From: an uncultured Bifidobacterium sp.
GTDB taxonomy: Bacteria; Acidobacteriota; Vicinamibacteria; Vicinamibacterales; CAVVIG01
Assembly (NCBI GenBank): GCA_964386715.1
Contig: CAYLTD010000002.1
Coordinates: forward strand, 109,449-173,448
DNA: 64,000 bases
Reading direction: 5' to 3'
Part shown: positions 3,619-45,524 of the stretch, piece after piece
How the letters are laid out: each line of letters starts with the position of its first letter
Numbering within the stretch: position 1 is the first letter of the stretch
Notes under the pieces: generated by a model
Told to the model about the DNA's origin: nothing
The model's database searches: none
What the model saw: the letters and a program-made list of their open reading frames with translations, nothing else
Made by a program: the position numbers and the translations under genes

Positions 3619-5673
3619 TCAGGGCCGCTGCGGGCCGGGGCCACGCCGGGCCGCCCAGCGGGCGGACAGGCCGGCTGACGCCGACGCCCGACACGGTGGC
3701 GGATCGTCGGGCTGGAACAGCTCGTATCGACCGTCACTGTGTACCGGCACCAACCGCAGGATGTCGGTGGCGGCGTCCCTCAGAGCGCGCGAGGCTCGCG
3801 CCGAGTCGATCACCACGAACCCGACGCACGTCCGTGCCAAAAAGTCGTCGCGGCGGCGCCTGGCGCGGCGCAGCAGCCGCTCCGGCTGTACTGCGCCACT
3901 CGGCGCGCTCAGTTCCACCAGCACCCGCAACACGGGGTTACGCATCGTCTCCTCGCGCCGCCACGTGCTCACGCGGGACAGGTACCCGCCGACGAGCGGC
4001 CGGCCGTGGTGCGTCTGATAGAACTGCGTCGACGCCTGGAAGTCTCCGAGCGAACTGGTGCCGTCGCGAATGCCTGTCGGCAACTCCATGATGGCGCCGG
4101 ACTCGTCGCCCGTCGCGAGCAGGCGGTAGACCTCGGGGACGTCGGCGCGAAAGAGCCGCCGAGGCGCGGGCGTCAGTTCGAGGGCACAGAGCAGGACGAC
4201 CACCGCGGCCGCCGTGCGGCTCCTCGCCGACGCGCTCCGGAGCCACCCGTCCAGCATCCAGCCAAAGAGCAGCGCGAAGCCCAGGCTGGCCACGATGCTG
4301 AACCTGGACGGCGCCCGCGCGAGATCGACGATCGGGACGTACCGCAACAACGCCCACGGGCCGGGGACGAAAGTGTTCACACTGGCGACGTGTACAAAAG
4401 GGCCGAGCGACAACGCCGCAAAGATCGCCGTGAAGCCCAACCAGAGTGCGGGCAGCTGACGACGCGCCGTGGCAATGGCGATCGCGATGATGGCCACTAT
4501 CGAGAAGGAGGCGACAAACTCGGGGAACGCGTCCGGATAGGACGGCATGAACCAACCGGCAGTGAGCTGTCCGAACCAGGGGTTGAGCGGGTTCGGAACC
4601 AGGTAGCCCAGCAGGTCCACGCCTCGAGGACTGCTCCGCCAGAACACGTCAGTCGTCGGCATGCGGCTGAGCAGCATGCGGCGCGCCACGCCGAGCAGCG
4701 GTGGCGCCATGAGCAGCACGCAGGTCCCAACGGCGGTGGCCGCGAGCGGGAGCAGACGACGCAGTCGCTCCGCGGCTCCCGTCACCGGGACCAGCCTCAC
4801 AGGCCGGCGGGACAACGCGCGGAGGAGCCCTCCAACCGTGAGAATCAGCACGGGCGTGTAGATCGGTTCGATGCGGATGCGCAGCGGACCGAGTTCCAGT
4901 CCGGAGTATCCGGCCAGCCGCAACGCCACGATCAGCGTCGCGACCGCCAGCACGCCGTTGAGGAGACGCAGGGCGAGGCGGCGTCCGTCCGTTGCCGCGC
5001 GAACCGCCGGCCGCCGCTCCAGGCACGCGAACTGGGGCGCGAGCACGACAGCCCCGGCCAAAGCGCAGTAGATGCCGAGGTACGCGTCGGAGTAGGACGC
5101 CAGCGCGGTCAGCGCACCGAGCGTGACCGCATCCCGGTGACGCTCACGTTCGAGCACCCGCAGCAGCTGCCACAGGAAGAGCGGAAGACCCGCCGTGGCC
5201 ACCAGACTGGCGTGAGCGACCTGCCGCGCCGTGTGCGTGGGCGCCGCGATGAAGATGACTCCCGCGGCAACCGCCGCAACGGGGCCGATCCCGAGACGCC
5301 GCGCCAGCAGGACGACCGCGAGCCCGCTCGCAGCCGACGCAGCCATCAGCAGCAGGTTGAATGTCCCGACGACGCCGACGGCCCTGAGCAGGGGCAGGCC
5401 CAGGAGCCCGGCCAAGGGCGTGTAATTGTGGAGTGCGAAGTCGGCCCCCTGCGTGAAGGCGAATACGTGGTCAGTGGAGAACGGCAGCCGACCGTGCTCC
5501 ATCAGTTCGTGGTGGAACACCCAGATGTTCCAGACGTACACGCCAAGATCGCCGGCAGGGTCGCCTGTCAGGTGGCTGAAGAGGTGGAGCGGCAGGGGCC
5601 AGACCAGCAGAACAGCCACCGCGCAGACGACCGTCACGATCCCAACGCGTCGGGCCCAGCGCGAGCTCATCAT
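3619..5673 (-). CDS. Polytopic membrane protein, probable GT-C-fold (lipid-linked-sugar) glycosyltransferase, YfhO-like
   Basis: 684 aa with many TM segments; N-terminal loop GDPAGD..VYVWNIW...HNYTPL; RAPSRF; soluble C-terminal domain (ELP...QFYQTHHGRPLVGGYLSR). Confidence 0.6.
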   Translation of the reverse strand: MMSSRWARRVGIVTVVCAVAVLLVWPLPLHLFSHLTGDPAGDLGVYVWNIWVFHHELMEHGRLPFSTDHVFAFTQGADFALHNYTPLAGLLGLPLLRAVGVVGTFNLLLMAASAASGLAVVLLARRLGIGPVAAVAAGVIFIAAPTHTARQVAHASLVATAGLPLFLWQLLRVLERERHRDAVTLGALTALASYSDAYLGIYCALAGAVVLAPQFACLERRPAVRAATDGRRLALRLLNGVLAVATLIVALRLAGYSGLELGPLRIRIEPIYTPVLILTVGGLLRALSRRPVRLVPVTGAAERLRRLLPLAATAVGTCVLLMAPPLLGVARRMLLSRMPTTDVFWRSSPRGVDLLGYLVPNPLNPWFGQLTAGWFMPSYPDAFPEFVASFSIVAIIAIAIATARRQLPALWLGFTAIFAALSLGPFVHVASVNTFVPGPWALLRYVPIVDLARAPSRFSIVASLGFALLFGWMLDGWLRSASARSRTAAAVVVLLCALELTPAPRRLFRADVPEVYRLLATGDESGAIMELPTGIRDGTSSLGDFQASTQFYQTHHGRPLVGGYLSRVSTWRREETMRNPVLRVLVELSAPSGAVQPERLLRRARRRRDDFLARTCVGFVVIDSARASRALRDAATDILRLVPVHSDGRYELFQPDDPPPCRASASAGLSARWAARRGPGPQRP

Positions 5674-40131: not shown

Positions 40132-41028
40132 CTACCGTCGGCGCACGTCGTCGCCAAACCGATAGGCGAGCAGCTTGTAGGCGAGCTTCGCGCAGAGCAG
40201 ATCAGGCGCGGCGAAGCCGCGCAGCGGCGCCAGCTCCACGACGTCACAGCCCACGATGAGCCGCATCTCGGCAACGCTGCGCAGCAGGGCGATGGTTTCG
40301 TACCAGCTGAGCCCTCCGGGCTCCGGCGCGGGCGTCGCCGGCATCGTGCCGGGCTCCAGGCCGTCTACGCTGATGGTCACGTACACCGCTTCACCGAGCG
40401 AGTCCACGATACGGGCGATCCACCGGTCGTCCGCGCGCATGTTGAAGTCGTAGAAGATCTCGGTCGGCAGCGTCGGCGCGGCCTCCGCCTCCTCGGGCGA
40501 GAGGCTGCGGATGCCGACCTGCGTCGCACGGGCAAACTCCAGGGCCCGCCGCATCGCGCAGCGGTGATGGTGCGGCGTGCCCAGGTGACGGTCCCGCAGG
40601 TTGGCGTGCGCCCCGATGTGCAGCACCGACAGCCCGCTGTGGCGCTGCGCCATGGCTGCGACGATCGGCCCGGTGATGGCGTGCTCGCCGCCGAGAAAGA
40701 CGGGAAACTTCCCCTCGGTAATCAGCCACGCCGCCACACGCCTGATCTCCGCGACGGCCTCGTCAAGATCCGCAGGCCACGCGTGCATCGCGGGCAGAGT
40801 GCACACCCCGATGTGCGCGGCCACACACTGCATCTCCTCGTCCCACAGCGCCAATTGCGCCGAGGCTGTCAGGATGGCGAGCGGTCCGGACGACGTGCCG
40901 GTGGCGGAGCCGTTGGTCCGGTCGAAGGGCAGCGGCAGCACCACCACGCGCGCGCGGTCGAACGGCACCTGCGGAAAGTGGATGCCCCCGTAGGGAATCA
41001 GCGTGCCCTGGTCGTCATCGAGCGGCAG
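40132..41028 (-). CDS. Agmatinase/ureohydrolase-family protein with degenerate metal site (start uncertain: CTG 41028/41031 after an SD, or GTG 41127)
   Basis: VVLPLPFD, GP.AILTAS, LGGEHA, QVGIRS, PEPGGLSW, GCDVVELAP, AKLAYK. It has GAHAN instead of DAHxD and SVD instead of DxD. Confidence 0.8.
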   Translation of the reverse strand: MPLDDDQGTLIPYGGIHFPQVPFDRARVVVLPLPFDRTNGSATGTSSGPLAILTASAQLALWDEEMQCVAAHIGVCTLPAMHAWPADLDEAVAEIRRVAAWLITEGKFPVFLGGEHAITGPIVAAMAQRHSGLSVLHIGAHANLRDRHLGTPHHHRCAMRRALEFARATQVGIRSLSPEEAEAAPTLPTEIFYDFNMRADDRWIARIVDSLGEAVYVTISVDGLEPGTMPATPAPEPGGLSWYETIALLRSVAEMRLIVGCDVVELAPLRGFAAPDLLCAKLAYKLLAYRFGDDVRRR

Positions 41029-41074
41029 CAGCGTGCCTCCTCGGGCCGCCGCGTCTTCTCCGGCCGGCCGGTCG

Positions 41075-44005
41075 CTAGAACGCGCGCCCCATGCGCGCGT
41101 AAATCGTCGTGCCGCGCGGCAGGCCACCGTTGCGGCCCCACGCCATACCCGCCGTCAGGGTCAGCGGCAGCCCGTAACCCGCGACCACGTCCGCAGACAG
41201 TTCCGCCCCCCAGGCGGCCTTCCATCGCGGGTCGGGCCTGAGGTCCGACCAGATGCGTCCCGCATCGGCAAACGCCGCCACGTGGAGCCACCGCACGAAC
41301 ACGGGCAGCGTCCCGACTCCGCGCTCGAGACGCGGCAGCGGGACCCGGTATTCGGCATTGAAGACCGCGATTCGTGTTCCCGCGAAGCTGCCGGCCGGAA
41401 AGGCTCGCAGCAGTCCCAGCGCATCCGAGGCGAACGACGTGACGCTCGGCGACGCCTGCACACCACCAAGCTGGAACGCACGACGCGTGCCGACCGTGCC
41501 AGCCGACACCCCTCCAGCGCCCCGCACCGCAAGCACCTGATGCCGACCGGCGCCTCGCACATAGCCGCGCACATCCATGGTGGCGGTGTTGGTGTCGCCC
41601 GCAGATCCCAGCGCCTGGCGGGCCACCTCGGCCGTGCCGCCCGCGAGAATGCCGTCGACAGGACTGATCGAGTAGCCGTAGACGCGAGCCGTCCGAGCCA
41701 CGGCGGAGGCGCGCCCCGCGACGGTCCGGATACTCCTCGGCCCCGCAGGCAGGAGAAAACGGCTCTCGCTCGACAGGAACGAGACGGCCACCTGTTCTGC
41801 ACGCCGTGCATGCACGAATGGCAGAGAAACGCCCGCCTGCAGTTCCCGCTGGCCGACGGTCGTGAGTCCGGTACTCGGCTCGAGGTCTGTACGGAGGAAG
41901 TCGGTTTGCCGGGCGCCGGAGACGAAGAAGACCGGCCGCCATCGCGTGTAGGCGTACGAGACGTTCCAGTCGGGCGAGGTGCGATTCGGCTGTCGTGGCG
42001 CGTCGGGCCCCTCCACGAGCCAGGTCAGGTCCGCAGCGTAGGCATGGCGTCCCAGCACGTCCGCGCCTCCGATTGCAGCACCGGCCCTGACCTGCACGCC
42101 ATCGTCGGTCAGCACTGGCGTCCAGGAGGTGGGCGCCAACGTGCCGAGCGGGGAGTACACCCGCCCGGCCGCCTCCGCCGCGGCAGGCACGTCACCCGTG
42201 CGGAATTCGCCGCTGGGTGCCGGCGCAACGGCTGATACGCCGGTCACCGACGTCTGGCTGCGCGCGGTGCGAGGTGCGCGCTCGGGATACGGCATCAGGA
42301 ACAGGTCGAATCCGCGCGCCGTGTAGCCCGCGTAGACGATCGAGCGGCCGTCCGGCGACACGTCCGGCCAGTACGCACCGTTCGACTGTGTCAGCCTCGT
42401 GGCCGGACCGCCCTCCAGCGGGAACTCGTAGAGTTCGAACGCCCCCCCGTCGAAGTCCGCGGCCGCCACGACCGCCTGTCCATCGGGGCGCCACGCCGGC
42501 GTGACGATGCGCGCCGCCGGGTCCGCCGCCAGCAGTCGCACCGCTCTCGTTGCCACATCGACGATCACCAGGTCGGGCAAGGCGCCAAGACGGCGCCGTT
42601 CCACGGCGACCGTCCGCCCGTCCGGCGACCACTTCGGCACGCTGAACTGCTCGTCGGCTGCCGACGCGATCACCGTGATCGCCTCGGTAGGGATGCCTGA
42701 ATCCGCGCGCAGCGCAGGCGGGACGAGCACGAGTTCACGCCGGTCCTGCCGCTGGCGCACGGCGACGATACGCCCGTCCGTGGCCACGTCGGGATCCATA
42801 AGCCGCTGCTCGCGCGTAAGCGCGCGGACGTCTCCAGTGCGGCGATCCAGCCGGTACAGGTCGGAGTACAGCCCCACGTTGCGACGGAACTCCTGCTGGT
42901 CGAAGACCAGGTAGGGCGCCTGCACGCCGACGGTCTCGCCGAGGAAGCGCAGCGTGAGCCGCCGATCGCCGCCGCCGTCCGCGCCGATGCGGCGCATCTC
43001 CGGAAAGGTGTCGGGGTTGCGCGCGGCGTAGATGATCTCAGCCGCGCATTCGTCGCAGGCAGCCGGCGCGAAACGTGGTCCCGACACGAACTGCCCGTGC
43101 ATCGTCAGGCGCTTTGCCGGCGTCCTCGAGTCGTCGGCGACCACGAACGTTTCGGCGTCGGCGCGCGAGCGCTGCTCGTAGTCCCGCCACAGGGTACCGA
43201 GCGACGCACCGAAGACCGGTCGGAAGGCGCGAGACCCGAAGTAGGGAAGGCGCCGTGCGGTGGCCACGGCGAGCTGACCGAGCGATGCAGGCCCGAAACG
43301 CTCCGCGAGATAGTCGTGAAATCCCAGCCCGTATGCGTAGGCCCCGTGACCGGTCGGCCAGCGCACCAGCCCGCCGTTCAGCCGGTCCAGCCGTTCCACG
43401 CCGCCCGACGCAGCCGCAACGCGTTCGATCGCCCGGAAGTCGCCGGCCGCAAGACGCCCCTGGCCGGCCAGCGCGCTCTCCTGCCACGTGGCCAGTCCCT
43501 CGATCTGCCACTGCGGAAGCCACAGGTTGGGGAAGGCAAGCGGTGATCGGCCCAGCAGGCCGCGAGCGACGGTGGACCAGCCGCGCGACAGGTCGAGGTG
43601 AACGATGTGCGTGTATTCGTGCGTGAAGACGAGCCGCAGCCAGTCGTCGGTGCGGCCGATGAACGCGGCGCCCGGGGGTACGGCGGCGGTGAGAAAGACG
43701 ATGTTGCGGGGGAGAGGCGTCGCCCAGCCGTTGGCCAGCTCCGCCTGGTCCGCCAGGATGACATGCGTGAGTCGCGGCGGCTCGACGCCCAGCGCCCGGC
43801 CGACCTGGATGCGCACGTCTTCCACGAGTGTGGCCAGACGGGCGGCCAGCGGCTCTTCGCCGCGGTGGTAATAGATGACGAAATGCGCCGTGCGCCGTTC
43901 GCGGAACCGCAGCGCGGGGTCCACGATGGTCGCCGCCTGCGCAATGGTCGCCCAGAGCAGCGCCAGGCAGAGCGACACGGCGAGGCTAGTTGGCCGTGCC
44001 ACCAC
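41075..44005 (-). CDS. Omp85/BamA-TamA-family protein with N-terminal zinc metallopeptidase (HExxH) and WD40/PD40 beta-propeller
   Basis: Signal peptide; THEYTHIVH...WQIEGLATWQE; PD40-like SVPKWSPDG, TPAWRPDG, WPDVSPDG; barrel with LRAF, FNAEYRVP, FADAG and C-terminal RAF. Confidence 0.78.
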   Translation of the reverse strand: MVARPTSLAVSLCLALLWATIAQAATIVDPALRFRERRTAHFVIYYHRGEEPLAARLATLVEDVRIQVGRALGVEPPRLTHVILADQAELANGWATPLPRNIVFLTAAVPPGAAFIGRTDDWLRLVFTHEYTHIVHLDLSRGWSTVARGLLGRSPLAFPNLWLPQWQIEGLATWQESALAGQGRLAAGDFRAIERVAAASGGVERLDRLNGGLVRWPTGHGAYAYGLGFHDYLAERFGPASLGQLAVATARRLPYFGSRAFRPVFGASLGTLWRDYEQRSRADAETFVVADDSRTPAKRLTMHGQFVSGPRFAPAACDECAAEIIYAARNPDTFPEMRRIGADGGGDRRLTLRFLGETVGVQAPYLVFDQQEFRRNVGLYSDLYRLDRRTGDVRALTREQRLMDPDVATDGRIVAVRQRQDRRELVLVPPALRADSGIPTEAITVIASAADEQFSVPKWSPDGRTVAVERRRLGALPDLVIVDVATRAVRLLAADPAARIVTPAWRPDGQAVVAAADFDGGAFELYEFPLEGGPATRLTQSNGAYWPDVSPDGRSIVYAGYTARGFDLFLMPYPERAPRTARSQTSVTGVSAVAPAPSGEFRTGDVPAAAEAAGRVYSPLGTLAPTSWTPVLTDDGVQVRAGAAIGGADVLGRHAYAADLTWLVEGPDAPRQPNRTSPDWNVSYAYTRWRPVFFVSGARQTDFLRTDLEPSTGLTTVGQRELQAGVSLPFVHARRAEQVAVSFLSSESRFLLPAGPRSIRTVAGRASAVARTARVYGYSISPVDGILAGGTAEVARQALGSAGDTNTATMDVRGYVRGAGRHQVLAVRGAGGVSAGTVGTRRAFQLGGVQASPSVTSFASDALGLLRAFPAGSFAGTRIAVFNAEYRVPLPRLERGVGTLPVFVRWLHVAAFADAGRIWSDLRPDPRWKAAWGAELSADVVAGYGLPLTLTAGMAWGRNGGLPRGTTIYARMGRAF

Positions 44006-45524
44006 TCCGGGAAACGTCCTTGAGGAACGAGAAGTCGGCCAGCGGGTTCAGTCGCAGGCCCTGCAGGTCGCGCTGCGCGACGGCCACGTTGGTCTTGTGC
44101 CACAGGCTGATGTACGGCACGTCGGCGGCAATCACCTGCTGCACCTCGTGGTACAGCGCGAGGCGTCTCGCCTCGTCCAGTTCGCTGCCCGCCGCGTCCA
44201 GCAGGCCGTCCACGCGGGGATTGCTGTATCGCCCGCGGTTGAAACCCGCCGGGGGCACCTGGGTCGAGTGGAAGACGCGGCGGAGGATGTCCGGGTCGGC
44301 CAGGGATGCGGCGGTCCACTGCAGGGTATAGAGCTGGAAATTGCCGGCGAGCACGTCGGCATACAACGTCGCGAACTCGTAGGTGCGCACGTCGAGCGCG
44401 ATGCCGATGTCCCGCAAGTCCTGCTGGATCACCGAGGACTGCAGGCGGTTGAACTCGCTGTTCGATACCTTGAGGGTCAACGCGAAGCGCACGCGCGGGC
44501 CGTCGCCGTCCGGGTCGGCGTATCCCGCTTCATCGAGCAGCGCCCGCGCCCTGGCGGGATCGTGCGGGAACGAGAAGAGGTCGGGAGACGCCGCCCACGA
44601 AAGCGCTGGCAGCATGCCGGCTGCCGGCGCCGCCAGTCCCCGCCGGAGGTGGGCGACGATCGCGTCCCGATTGATGCCGTGGGCCAGGGCCTGCCGCACG
44701 CGTACGTCCCTCAGGACCGGATCGCGCAGGTTCACGCCGACGTACTGGTAGTCGACCCCGGGGCCCTGAACCACCTGAAGGCCGGCGTGTGAGCGCAACT
44801 GGTGCACGAGGTCAGGCGCGACATCGTTGACCACCAGGTCCATGGTGCCCCTGCGCAGTTCGAGCCCACGCATCACGTCGTCGGGCACGATCTTCATCAC
44901 GAGGCCGCGGTTCTTCGGCGGGCCGGCCCAGTAGTGCGAATTGGCCTCGAGTTCCACCTGGTCGTCCACGGCATAGCGGACGAATCGGTAGGGCCCCGAG
45001 CCGACGGGACGATCGCGCAGCGAGGCGTCCGCCCCTTTCGGCACGATTGGCATCATCAGGTTGATCGGGAAGGAGGGAAACGGCTGGCGAAGGGTGAAGA
45101 CGACGGTGTACGGGTCCGTTGCCACGACCGACGCGAGCTCGCGGTAGCCTCCCTTGCGCGGCGAAGTGAACGCCGGGTCGATCATCTGGCCGAAGGTGAA
45201 CACCACGTCATCGGCCGTCAGGCCGCGGCCATCGTGGAAGTGGATGTCGCGTCGGATACGGGCCACGTAGGTCAGCGGGTCCGGGTGCTCGAGCGATGCC
45301 GCGACCCTGGGCACGACGCGAAGGCGGTCGTCGAGGTCCACCAGGTTGTCGAAGATCAACTGGTGCAGTTTCTGCGACGCGTCGTCGGTTGCGAACCGCG
45401 GGTCGAGGTTGTTCGGCCCGGTCGTGATGCTGACGACGAGCATGCCGGGAGCAGTGGCTGGACGGCGCAGGCAGGCGGGGCTGGCCAGCACCAGGGCCAG
45501 CGTCAGCAGCGCCCCCAGCCTCAC
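43986..45524 (-). CDS. ABC transporter substrate-binding lipoprotein, family 5 (DppA/OppA)
   Basis: Lipobox ASPAC; NLDP, FHDGRGLTADDVVF, PVGSGPYR, VRVRQALAHGINR, DVPYISL. Confidence 0.92.
   Translation of the reverse strand: MRLGALLTLALVLASPACLRRPATAPGMLVVSITTGPNNLDPRFATDDASQKLHQLIFDNLVDLDDRLRVVPRVAASLEHPDPLTYVARIRRDIHFHDGRGLTADDVVFTFGQMIDPAFTSPRKGGYRELASVVATDPYTVVFTLRQPFPSFPINLMMPIVPKGADASLRDRPVGSGPYRFVRYAVDDQVELEANSHYWAGPPKNRGLVMKIVPDDVMRGLELRRGTMDLVVNDVAPDLVHQLRSHAGLQVVQGPGVDYQYVGVNLRDPVLRDVRVRQALAHGINRDAIVAHLRRGLAAPAAGMLPALSWAASPDLFSFPHDPARARALLDEAGYADPDGDGPRVRFALTLKVSNSEFNRLQSSVIQQDLRDIGIALDVRTYEFATLYADVLAGNFQLYTLQWTAASLADPDILRRVFHSTQVPPAGFNRGRYSNPRVDGLLDAAGSELDEARRLALYHEVQQVIAADVPYISLWHKTNVAVAQRDLQGLRLNPLADFSFLKDVSRSGGTAN

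Follow-up and report, generated by a model that had tools for sequence, protein, structure and literature searches.

Loss of three metal ligands from an intact, partnerless agmatinase-like gene of a Vicinamibacterales genome: a probable stand-alone pseudoenzyme

We analysed a stretch of 64,000 nucleotides (the window) of contig CAYLTD010000002.1, taken from a genome of the Vicinamibacterales (G000), the reverse strand of which carries a homologue of the ureohydrolases that is deficient in metal ligands (maximal open reading frame, ORF, at 40132..41127). The ORF is open across 331 codons, from the first GTG at 41127 to the stop codon at 40132-40134, and the uninterrupted frame noted in an earlier reading of the DNA made without database searches (the sequence-only reading) is thereby upheld: the product is a full-length protein of the arginase fold. 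The Pfam profile Arginase (PF00491) matches with 183 bits over profile positions 2-277 of 280, and membership of the arginase/ureohydrolase superfamily is borne out by this whole-domain match together with a predicted three-layer alpha/beta fold. The score against the NCBIfam agmatinase equivalog TIGR01230 is 187.0 bits and thus above the cut-off of 174.3; this model penalises the loss of ligands too little. Upstream and co-directional lie the genes for a PD40/Omp85-type outer-membrane protein (41075..44005, reverse strand) and for a family-5 solute-binding protein (43986..45524, reverse strand), and downstream a convergent gene encoding a TPR_21 protein.

The active-site motifs were placed by means of HMMER alignments to the agmatinase-type structures 3pzl, 3nio, 3lhl and 1wog and by aligning the protein in MAFFT with 120 homologues from the databases. 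The six metal ligands read HGHNSD instead of the canonical HDHDDD, that is, three of the four aspartates are lost and both histidines and the last aspartate are kept. The canonical set was found in 118 of the 121 aligned sequences and in all 29 orthologues recovered in a survey of 118 genomes of the same GTDB family. The GGEH motif with ligand His149 (40681..40692, reverse strand, like all motif coordinates given here) is kept, and since the orthologues likewise have GGEH this constitutes no change. At 40600..40620 the protein has H-I-G-A-H-A-N (GAHAN at 40614..40600), where 118 of the 121 aligned sequences have Q-I-D-A-H-A-D, which amounts to Q170H, D172G and D176N with H174 kept. The following loop, R-H-L-G-T-P-H-H-H-R-C at 40558..40590 (HLGTPHHHRC spans 40587..40558), takes the place of S/T-F/Y-M-G-T-P-H-N-H-A-C and includes His188, the conserved catalytic histidine, which is retained. 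The third altered region, S-V-D-G-L-E-P...P-A-P-E-P-G-G at 40312..40371, contains D253S, D258E, G266P and T267A, with D255 kept: SVDG (40371..40360) stands where the orthologues have DVDG, so that T-I-S-V-D-G-L-E-P replaces T-I-D-V-D-G-L-D-P, and PAPEPGG (40332..40312) replaces GTPEPGG. The guanidinium-binding glutamate E298 (40234..40236) is retained according to the alignment.

The loss of three of the four metal-binding aspartates (GAHAN, SVD) next to a kept GGEH, and the replacement of DP by EP and of GTPEPGG by PAPEPGG, had been read directly from the DNA in the sequence-only reading, and the alignments to structures and orthologues agree with it on each of these points. The His-rich stretch HLGTPHHHRC to which it drew attention is present as well; part of that richness is ancestral (H186 and H188), and only H181 and H187, plus H170 in the preceding motif, are new. 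In the numbering of rat arginase I, which we take to correspond as follows, the changes are D124G (the bridging aspartate), D128N and D232S, the ligands kept are H101, H126 and D234, T267 (alanine here) would be the equivalent of T246, and E298 that of E277. In arginase, a single substitution of one such metal ligand already cripples catalysis. As the bridging aspartate is a glycine and two further aspartates are an asparagine and a serine, a binuclear Mn/Ni centre should be unable to form and the guanidino hydrolase activity has very probably been lost.

The upstream end of the gene has changed too. Homology to the orthologues begins at about 41034, with the conserved core near 41031, and the ATG at which the orthologues start reads ACG in the window (41034-41032) and AGC in the closest relative, described below (L033). 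In the probable translation start region (41026..41042, reverse strand) there is a Shine-Dalgarno-like box GAGGAGG (41042-41036), followed by CTG CTG (41031, 41028), and the succession of GAGGAGG and CTG is kept in both genes. The next in-frame GTG (V54, 40968-40966) is found in both alike, and the GTG at 41127 is peculiar to the genome from which the window derives. A start at 41028 had been assumed in the sequence-only reading; this codon is a CTG, and with the ancestral ATG gone the true start is only putative. We favour a candidate CTG start, because residues 33-53 still resemble the N-terminus of the orthologues.

The gene is an orthologue of a ureohydrolase that in Vicinamibacterales is associated with a gene like that of deoxyhypusine synthase (DHS-like; PF01916, SpeY-type; DS in the following), and the partner has been deleted. 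The orthology follows from the position of the gene, which nests in the Vicinamibacterales orthogroup in trees and is flanked by the PD40/Omp85 and TPR_21 genes. The canonical order of the locus is mutS, a PD40/Tricorn_N-type gene, the DS gene of 360 codons, the ureohydrolase gene and a convergent TPR_21 gene, and the ureohydrolase start overlaps the end of DS by 17 nt; the two are translationally coupled. Of the 29 family loci, 26 have DS immediately before the ureohydrolase gene, an arrangement likewise seen in L036, L038 and G050. No homology to DS was found between the PD40 and ureohydrolase genes in either the window or L033. What is left in the window is a spacer of 46 nt between the PD40/Omp85 stop and the CTG codons (41029..41074, reverse strand), at the site occupied by the DS gene of about 1.08 kb in those 26 loci, and within it only the 3' tail of DS with the Shine-Dalgarno box is still recognisable. 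Eight further genomes of the genus have the stop codons of PD40 and TPR_21 next to each other, DS and ureohydrolase having been cut out without leaving a trace. Clean deletion is thus the usual fate of the module after a switch of route, and the intact copy lacking ligands is the exception.

The same substitutions were found in one other protein, P0003, encoded on a Logan contig of 6.7 kb (L033), which is 79% identical and has the identical ligand string HGHNSD; it was the only one to share this string among the 120 best of 2,691 homologues recovered from a collection of 5.8 billion protein clusters. The gene order on L033 is like that in the window: SBP_bac_5, PD40/Omp85, the arginase-like gene and then a convergent TPR_21 gene. 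Sequencing or assembly error could be rejected as a source of the changes, since they are identical in this independent assembly. Pattern scans with the variant motifs GAHANLR...SVDG and AHANLR[DE]...GTPH gave no match in JGI metagenome contigs or GTDB genome contigs. The clade is rare.

The two genes allowed an estimate of selection. In a pairwise codon maximum-likelihood analysis the nonsynonymous divergence (dN) is 0.117 for the ureohydrolase and 0.126, 0.107 and 0.064 for the three flanking genes. Omega (dN/dS) is about 0.03, with a likelihood-ratio statistic of 283 against omega = 1; the synonymous divergence (dS) is saturated (about 2-19), and omega is therefore to be taken as an upper-bound style of estimate. 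Because of this saturation a model-free comparison was added: four-fold degenerate sites are 43.2% identical, 41.8% being expected from base composition, and codon positions 1 and 2 are 87.4% identical. Both ORFs are intact, with no indels over 298 codons. The frame has thus been preserved after the shared loss of ligands, over a divergence that has randomised the silent sites, and neither of the marks of a pseudogene, a disrupted frame or a dN/dS near 1, was found in either gene. In the sequence-only reading a dN/dS near 1, together with orthologues that keep the aspartates, had been named as the mark of simple decay, and conservation of the substitutions within a clade as a point to be checked; omega lies far below 1, and the loss is targeted and conserved under purifying selection in a small clade, so that simple decay is not borne out.

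This selection is weaker than that on the active orthologues and differently distributed. Relative to the PD40 and TPR_21 proteins, the rate of evolution of canonical ureohydrolases is 0.22-0.24 and 0.26-0.32, respectively, and for the pair considered here these ratios are 1.03 and 1.88; the constraint is relaxed 4-6 fold with respect to active orthologues, and it is still relaxed inside the clade. The stem of the clade measures at least 0.56 substitutions per site in the tree and its tips 0.32 and 0.19, against a median terminal branch of 0.069. Conservation among canonical orthologues reaches 95% or more at 158 columns, and at these the window protein deviates 29 times and P0003 28 times, the canonical mean being 1.2. 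Fifteen of these deviations are shared and identical, nine columns have changed in both proteins in a different manner (T72, Y74, H83, E93, D102, A189, T267, V306 and N309), and nine are private to one protein. Between the two proteins, residues 54-145 diverge by 37%, residues 146-275 by 8.5% and the C-terminal part by 26%, and canonical pairs of equal overall identity diverge by 23%, 16% and 22% over the N-terminal, core and C-terminal parts; only 0.17% of canonical pairs have a ratio of core to N-terminal divergence as low as the 0.23 found here. The central segment 146-275, including the remodelled motifs, is tightly held. The N-terminal loops, which are invariant in active enzymes and there presumably bind the tail of the substrate, are free to drift. 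T72, S73, Y74, H83, E84, E93, D102 and T267 are all invariant in active orthologues and altered here, several of them differently in the two clade members, and the idea of a guanidino- or polyamine-binding regulator, put forward in the sequence-only reading, is weakened by these changes in loops and acidic residues.

The metabolic setting of the canonical gene can be deduced from gene context and literature. CdmS/SpeY, a DHS homologue, joins two agmatines to N1,N9-bis(guanidino)homospermidine, which a SpeB-type ureohydrolase converts to homospermidine (PMC10981699, PMC13625781), and a homologue of agmatine iminohydrolase can take this finishing step instead (PMC10981699, PMC13625781). The canonical Vicinamibacterales orthologue would accordingly remove urea from an agmatine-derived intermediate to yield homospermidine. 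The genome studied here carries speA, for the formation of agmatine, and an adjacent aguB-aguA pair, for the alternative route by agmatine iminohydrolase and amidase, as well as a second gene of the DS family outside the window (C4:125799-126677; 434 bits to the NCBIfam 'homospermidine biosynthesis protein' at a cut-off of 450), which is the only DS-family gene in the genome above the Pfam cut-off. This second DHS-like gene is probably a SpeY that feeds a finishing route of the aguA/aguB type. A functional pairing of the ureohydrolase with it was considered and rejected: the gene is present in 12 of 12 genomes of the genus, whether the ureohydrolase is present or not.

Within the family, the two finishing enzymes are almost mutually exclusive. 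An AguA homologue was found in 35 of the 118 genomes and the ureohydrolase orthologue, at E ≤ 1e-40, in 63, and the resulting table, [[2,33],[61,22]], gives a Fisher p of 2.8e-12; the ureohydrolase is absent from 33 of the 35 genomes with the iminohydrolase. Both occur together in two genomes only, the source of the window, whose copy is the one deficient in ligands, and G053, whose copy is canonical. In the assembly of G053 the genes for ureohydrolase, PD40, TPR_21, speA and aguA are each split over two to four frames, as is typical of an uncorrected long-read assembly; since speA, PD40 and aguA are fragmented as well, the frameshifts in its ureohydrolase were put down to assembly errors and rejected as evidence of decay.

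Loss of ligands is not confined to the clade of the window. P0058, of the same orthogroup, has the ligands HDRDDG with H188R, and P0122, also of this orthogroup, has HGQEDN with H188P and E298G on a terminal branch of 1.55; both ORFs are intact. The gene for P0122 lies directly behind PD40 without DS (tblastn on L064), and judging by how long the called genes are and how far apart they lie, the same should hold for P0058. Ligand degeneration has hence occurred at least three times in the orthogroup. By lineage, degenerate copies were found at 3 of 8 loci without DS and at none of 29 loci with DS (Fisher p = 0.007, with lineages that are only approximately independent). Other loci without DS encode canonical ligands (P0004/L052, G053 and two or three others); loss of the partner therefore precedes the loss of ligands and does not force it. 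P0122 has lost ligands that the window protein keeps, yet the same core (about residues 190-290) is conserved in it, which suggests that the shared constraint is apparently not on the metal site.

Some further observations were made around this series. At the DS-less loci of P0004/L052 (about 355-400), G053/L034 (about 4440-4475) and P0122/L064 (2335-2370), CCTATAATCG stands just past the PD40/Omp85 stop as a -10-like box at the deletion junction; the junction differs in the window and in L033. The shared CCTATAATCG suggests that these loci go back to one deletion in an ancestor, by which a promoter for the ureohydrolase gene arose or was preserved. In a wider set, about 10 of the 150 nearest agmatinase-like representatives at 50% identity have incomplete ligands (including P0122, P0168, P0216, P0259, P0261 and P0268). 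Of the 137 ligand-complete representatives, 133 have Tyr, Phe or Trp at position 181 and one has His, which stands there in at least four deficient lineages; His187 and Gly172 likewise recur among the ligand-deficient representatives. A group with D255S (HDHDDS-type) may form a separate, uncharacterised family.

The two upstream genes also show some particular features. The solute-binding protein gene lies between mutS and PD40 both in this genome and on L033 (there at 495-2033) and overlaps both its neighbours, with no permease or ATPase gene nearby; its best NCBIfam matches are Opp4A, GsiB and NikA-like, all below cut-off, and it is absent from both canonical loci that can be read on the mutS side (L036/L037 and L038), where PD40 comes directly after mutS. 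The PD40/Omp85 protein (976 residues) has propeller repeats of the PD40/TolB kind and, at its C-terminus, a barrel of the Omp85 type, according to weak NCBIfam and Pfam matches, and although it is kept beside the ureohydrolase locus throughout the family it evolves fast (about 50% identity between genera).

A structure predicted with AlphaFold2 (AF2) shows a confident arginase fold (predicted template-modelling score, pTM, 0.83), with low confidence in the loop 71-74 and in the His-rich loop 177-189, where the per-residue score (pLDDT) is below 50. In Foldseek the model matches 3pzl, 3nio and 1wog with template-modelling (TM) scores of 0.75-0.80, agmatinase 3pzl being the best (TM about 0.8).

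Taken together, we consider it probable that the window protein is a stand-alone pseudoenzyme, retained because the agmatinase fold serves some purpose other than catalysis. The probable course of events is as follows: in the lineage of the window the DS partner was deleted, and the cell has the alternative aguB-aguA route; the ureohydrolase then lost D172, D176 and D253 plus the Thr and Gly of the GTPEPGG loop; the protein was retained, intact and folding, under a purifying selection 4-6 times weaker than that on the active orthologues; and the constraint has moved to residues 146-275, the N-terminal substrate loops drifting. The data show the orthology, the loss of the ligands and of the partner, the presence of the other route, the purifying selection and the change of rate, and from these we infer that activity has been lost and that the role is a non-catalytic one. 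The role that we propose is a scaffold or binding function of the fold, and the charge of the lost metal is most likely made up for by the new His and Arg residues that surround its former site. Several points weigh against this view. The ligands H149, H174 and D255 are all retained, as are the catalytic His188 and Glu298, and the derived residues around the old metal site are identical in both clade members, which would also fit a remodelled functional site. Moreover, the clade is defined by two sequences, so that the constraint per site is poorly resolved, and the start codon is uncertain.

The retained residues lend themselves to the view that the protein is still an enzyme, in which H149, H174 and D255, together with H170, H181 and H187, would form a mononuclear or other His-rich centre for a new or residual hydrolysis, and there is a precedent for a single metal at the arginase MnB position in enzymes of the HDAC type. 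The 20-residue LHIGAHANLRDRHLGTPHHH is the same in both proteins but for one I/L change, the segment 146-275 diverges only about half as much as in active orthologues of equal overall divergence, and His181, His187 and Gly172 recur in other ligand-deficient representatives, as noted. We nevertheless regard an enzyme of this kind as unlikely: the bridging D172 is a glycine, the equivalent of T246 drifts (Ala versus Val) as does residue 189 beside the catalytic histidine, both terminal branches are still 4-6 times faster than those of active orthologues, the His loop is precisely where the AF2 prediction is unsure, and the degenerate P0122 keeps the same conserved core without H174, D255, H188 and E298. 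More doubtful still appears to us an adaptive rebuilding, in which the loss of the aspartates and the gain of His170, His181, His187, Arg180 and Arg189 would have produced a His-rich site for a mononuclear metal or a small ligand, with a new activity or a role in sensing an agmatine-derived polyamine intermediate; were it true, the recurrent D172G, Y181H and N/S187H of several independent ligand-deficient lineages would mark an active site of a kind not yet described, evolved by convergence within the arginase fold.

Two further explanations were weighed and are both very improbable. One is that the gene is functionless and on its way to loss, its frame being still open only because chance has spared it or because truncated products would be toxic and are weakly selected against. 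The DS-SpeB module is indeed dispensable, 8-9 of the 12 genomes of the genus having lost it, the ATG of the orthologues is no longer there, the constraint is relaxed, and the clade is very rare, with one further member among the 120 best homologues and none in the pattern scans. The codon-model and four-fold-site comparisons nonetheless largely refute such decay: while the synonymous sites are saturated, the ORFs are intact, identity at the first two codon positions is still 87%, and dN is on a level with that of the functional genes nearby; besides, the unneeded copies of sister genomes were cleanly removed and not left decaying. The other, foreseen in the sequence-only reading, is an inactive subunit of a hetero-oligomeric ureohydrolase, like MetCb/MfmB of metformin hydrolase, which would have to pair with the canonical arginase of the genome. 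A loss of three of the six ligands lies within the range of 3-5 seen in the MetCb clade (PMC11271267), and the predicted model also matches MfmB/MetCb chains in Foldseek (TM about 0.77-0.80). The intact speB paralogue that such a heteromer calls for was looked for and none was found in the genome, which makes it unlikely: the only other PF00491 gene is a canonical arginase of the rocF type with all ligands, which lies on the same contig at a distance of about 146 kb and belongs to another subfamily. Furthermore, the window gene derives from a single-copy orthologue rather than a duplicated pair, and no genes for Ni chaperones were seen beside it.

If the preferred reading of a stand-alone pseudoenzyme holds, the locus presents an unusually well-resolved birth of a pseudoenzyme, in which the partner was deleted, a competing route was at hand, ligands were lost and the constraint was relaxed and shifted while the frame was kept, and the three degenerations in one orthogroup, all at loci without DS, provide a natural series of replicates. 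The distribution within the family supports, in a new phylum, an either/or choice between ureohydrolase and iminohydrolase for the finishing step of agmatine-dependent homospermidine synthesis. These matters are of moderate interest to specialists of polyamine metabolism and pseudoenzyme evolution, and of practical relevance for annotation. Database copies of the relatives of the window protein carry the labels 'agmatinase' or 'N1-aminopropylagmatine ureohydrolase', automatic annotation taking no account of the ligands. On the evidence of its motifs, the name 'agmatinase' that annotation pipelines will give to the window protein is probably wrong, and metabolic reconstructions would credit these soil Acidobacteriota with a route that is probably no longer used.

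Among the systems known, the ureohydrolases associated with SpeY/CdmS are TtSpeBap of Thermus thermophilus and the 'diagmatine ureohydrolase' of Caldilinea aerophila and of Winogradskyella algicola (PMC10981699, PMC13625781). The window protein resembles them in fold, subfamily and GGEH-type motif, its orthologues overlap a DHS-like gene, and its genome has speA and a SpeY-like gene; it differs in having three of six ligands, in the replacement of the GT of GTPEPGG and in the absence of the adjacent DHS-like gene. With canonical SpeB (TIGR01230; E. coli 7LOL, D. radiodurans 1WOG, T. volcanium 3PZL) it shares a score above the equivalog cut-off, but its set of binuclear ligands, unlike theirs, is incomplete. 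The best-understood pseudoenzyme of the arginase fold is MetCb/MfmB, the metal-free subunit of the Ni-dependent metformin hydrolase (PDB 8X3G, 8SNF), which is conserved, needed and has a scaffold role (PMC11271267, PMC10927577). Like it, the window protein has the arginase fold, has lost several ligands and is conserved; however, the two are only about 19% identical, MetCb is always encoded beside its catalytic paralogue MetCa and Ni chaperones whereas the window gene has no adjacent paralogue, and MetCb goes back to an ancient duplication whereas the window gene has arisen recently from an orthologue present in single copy. TbARG of Trypanosoma brucei, as far as it is described in PMC11271267 (citing Hai et al. 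2015 and Mothersole et al. 2022), is like the window protein a stand-alone and conserved protein without a binuclear cluster, but it is eukaryotic, comes from the arginase branch and has lost five of six ligands, whereas the window protein belongs to the agmatinase branch and keeps three. Further metal-less proteins of the arginase fold are the arginase domain of Fusobacterium Oda and mammalian agmatinase-like proteins (PMC11271267, PMC10927577). Proteins of this kind are thus already known, and what distinguishes the present case is its recent origin from a defined orthologue, the accompanying switch of pathway and the replicate degenerations.

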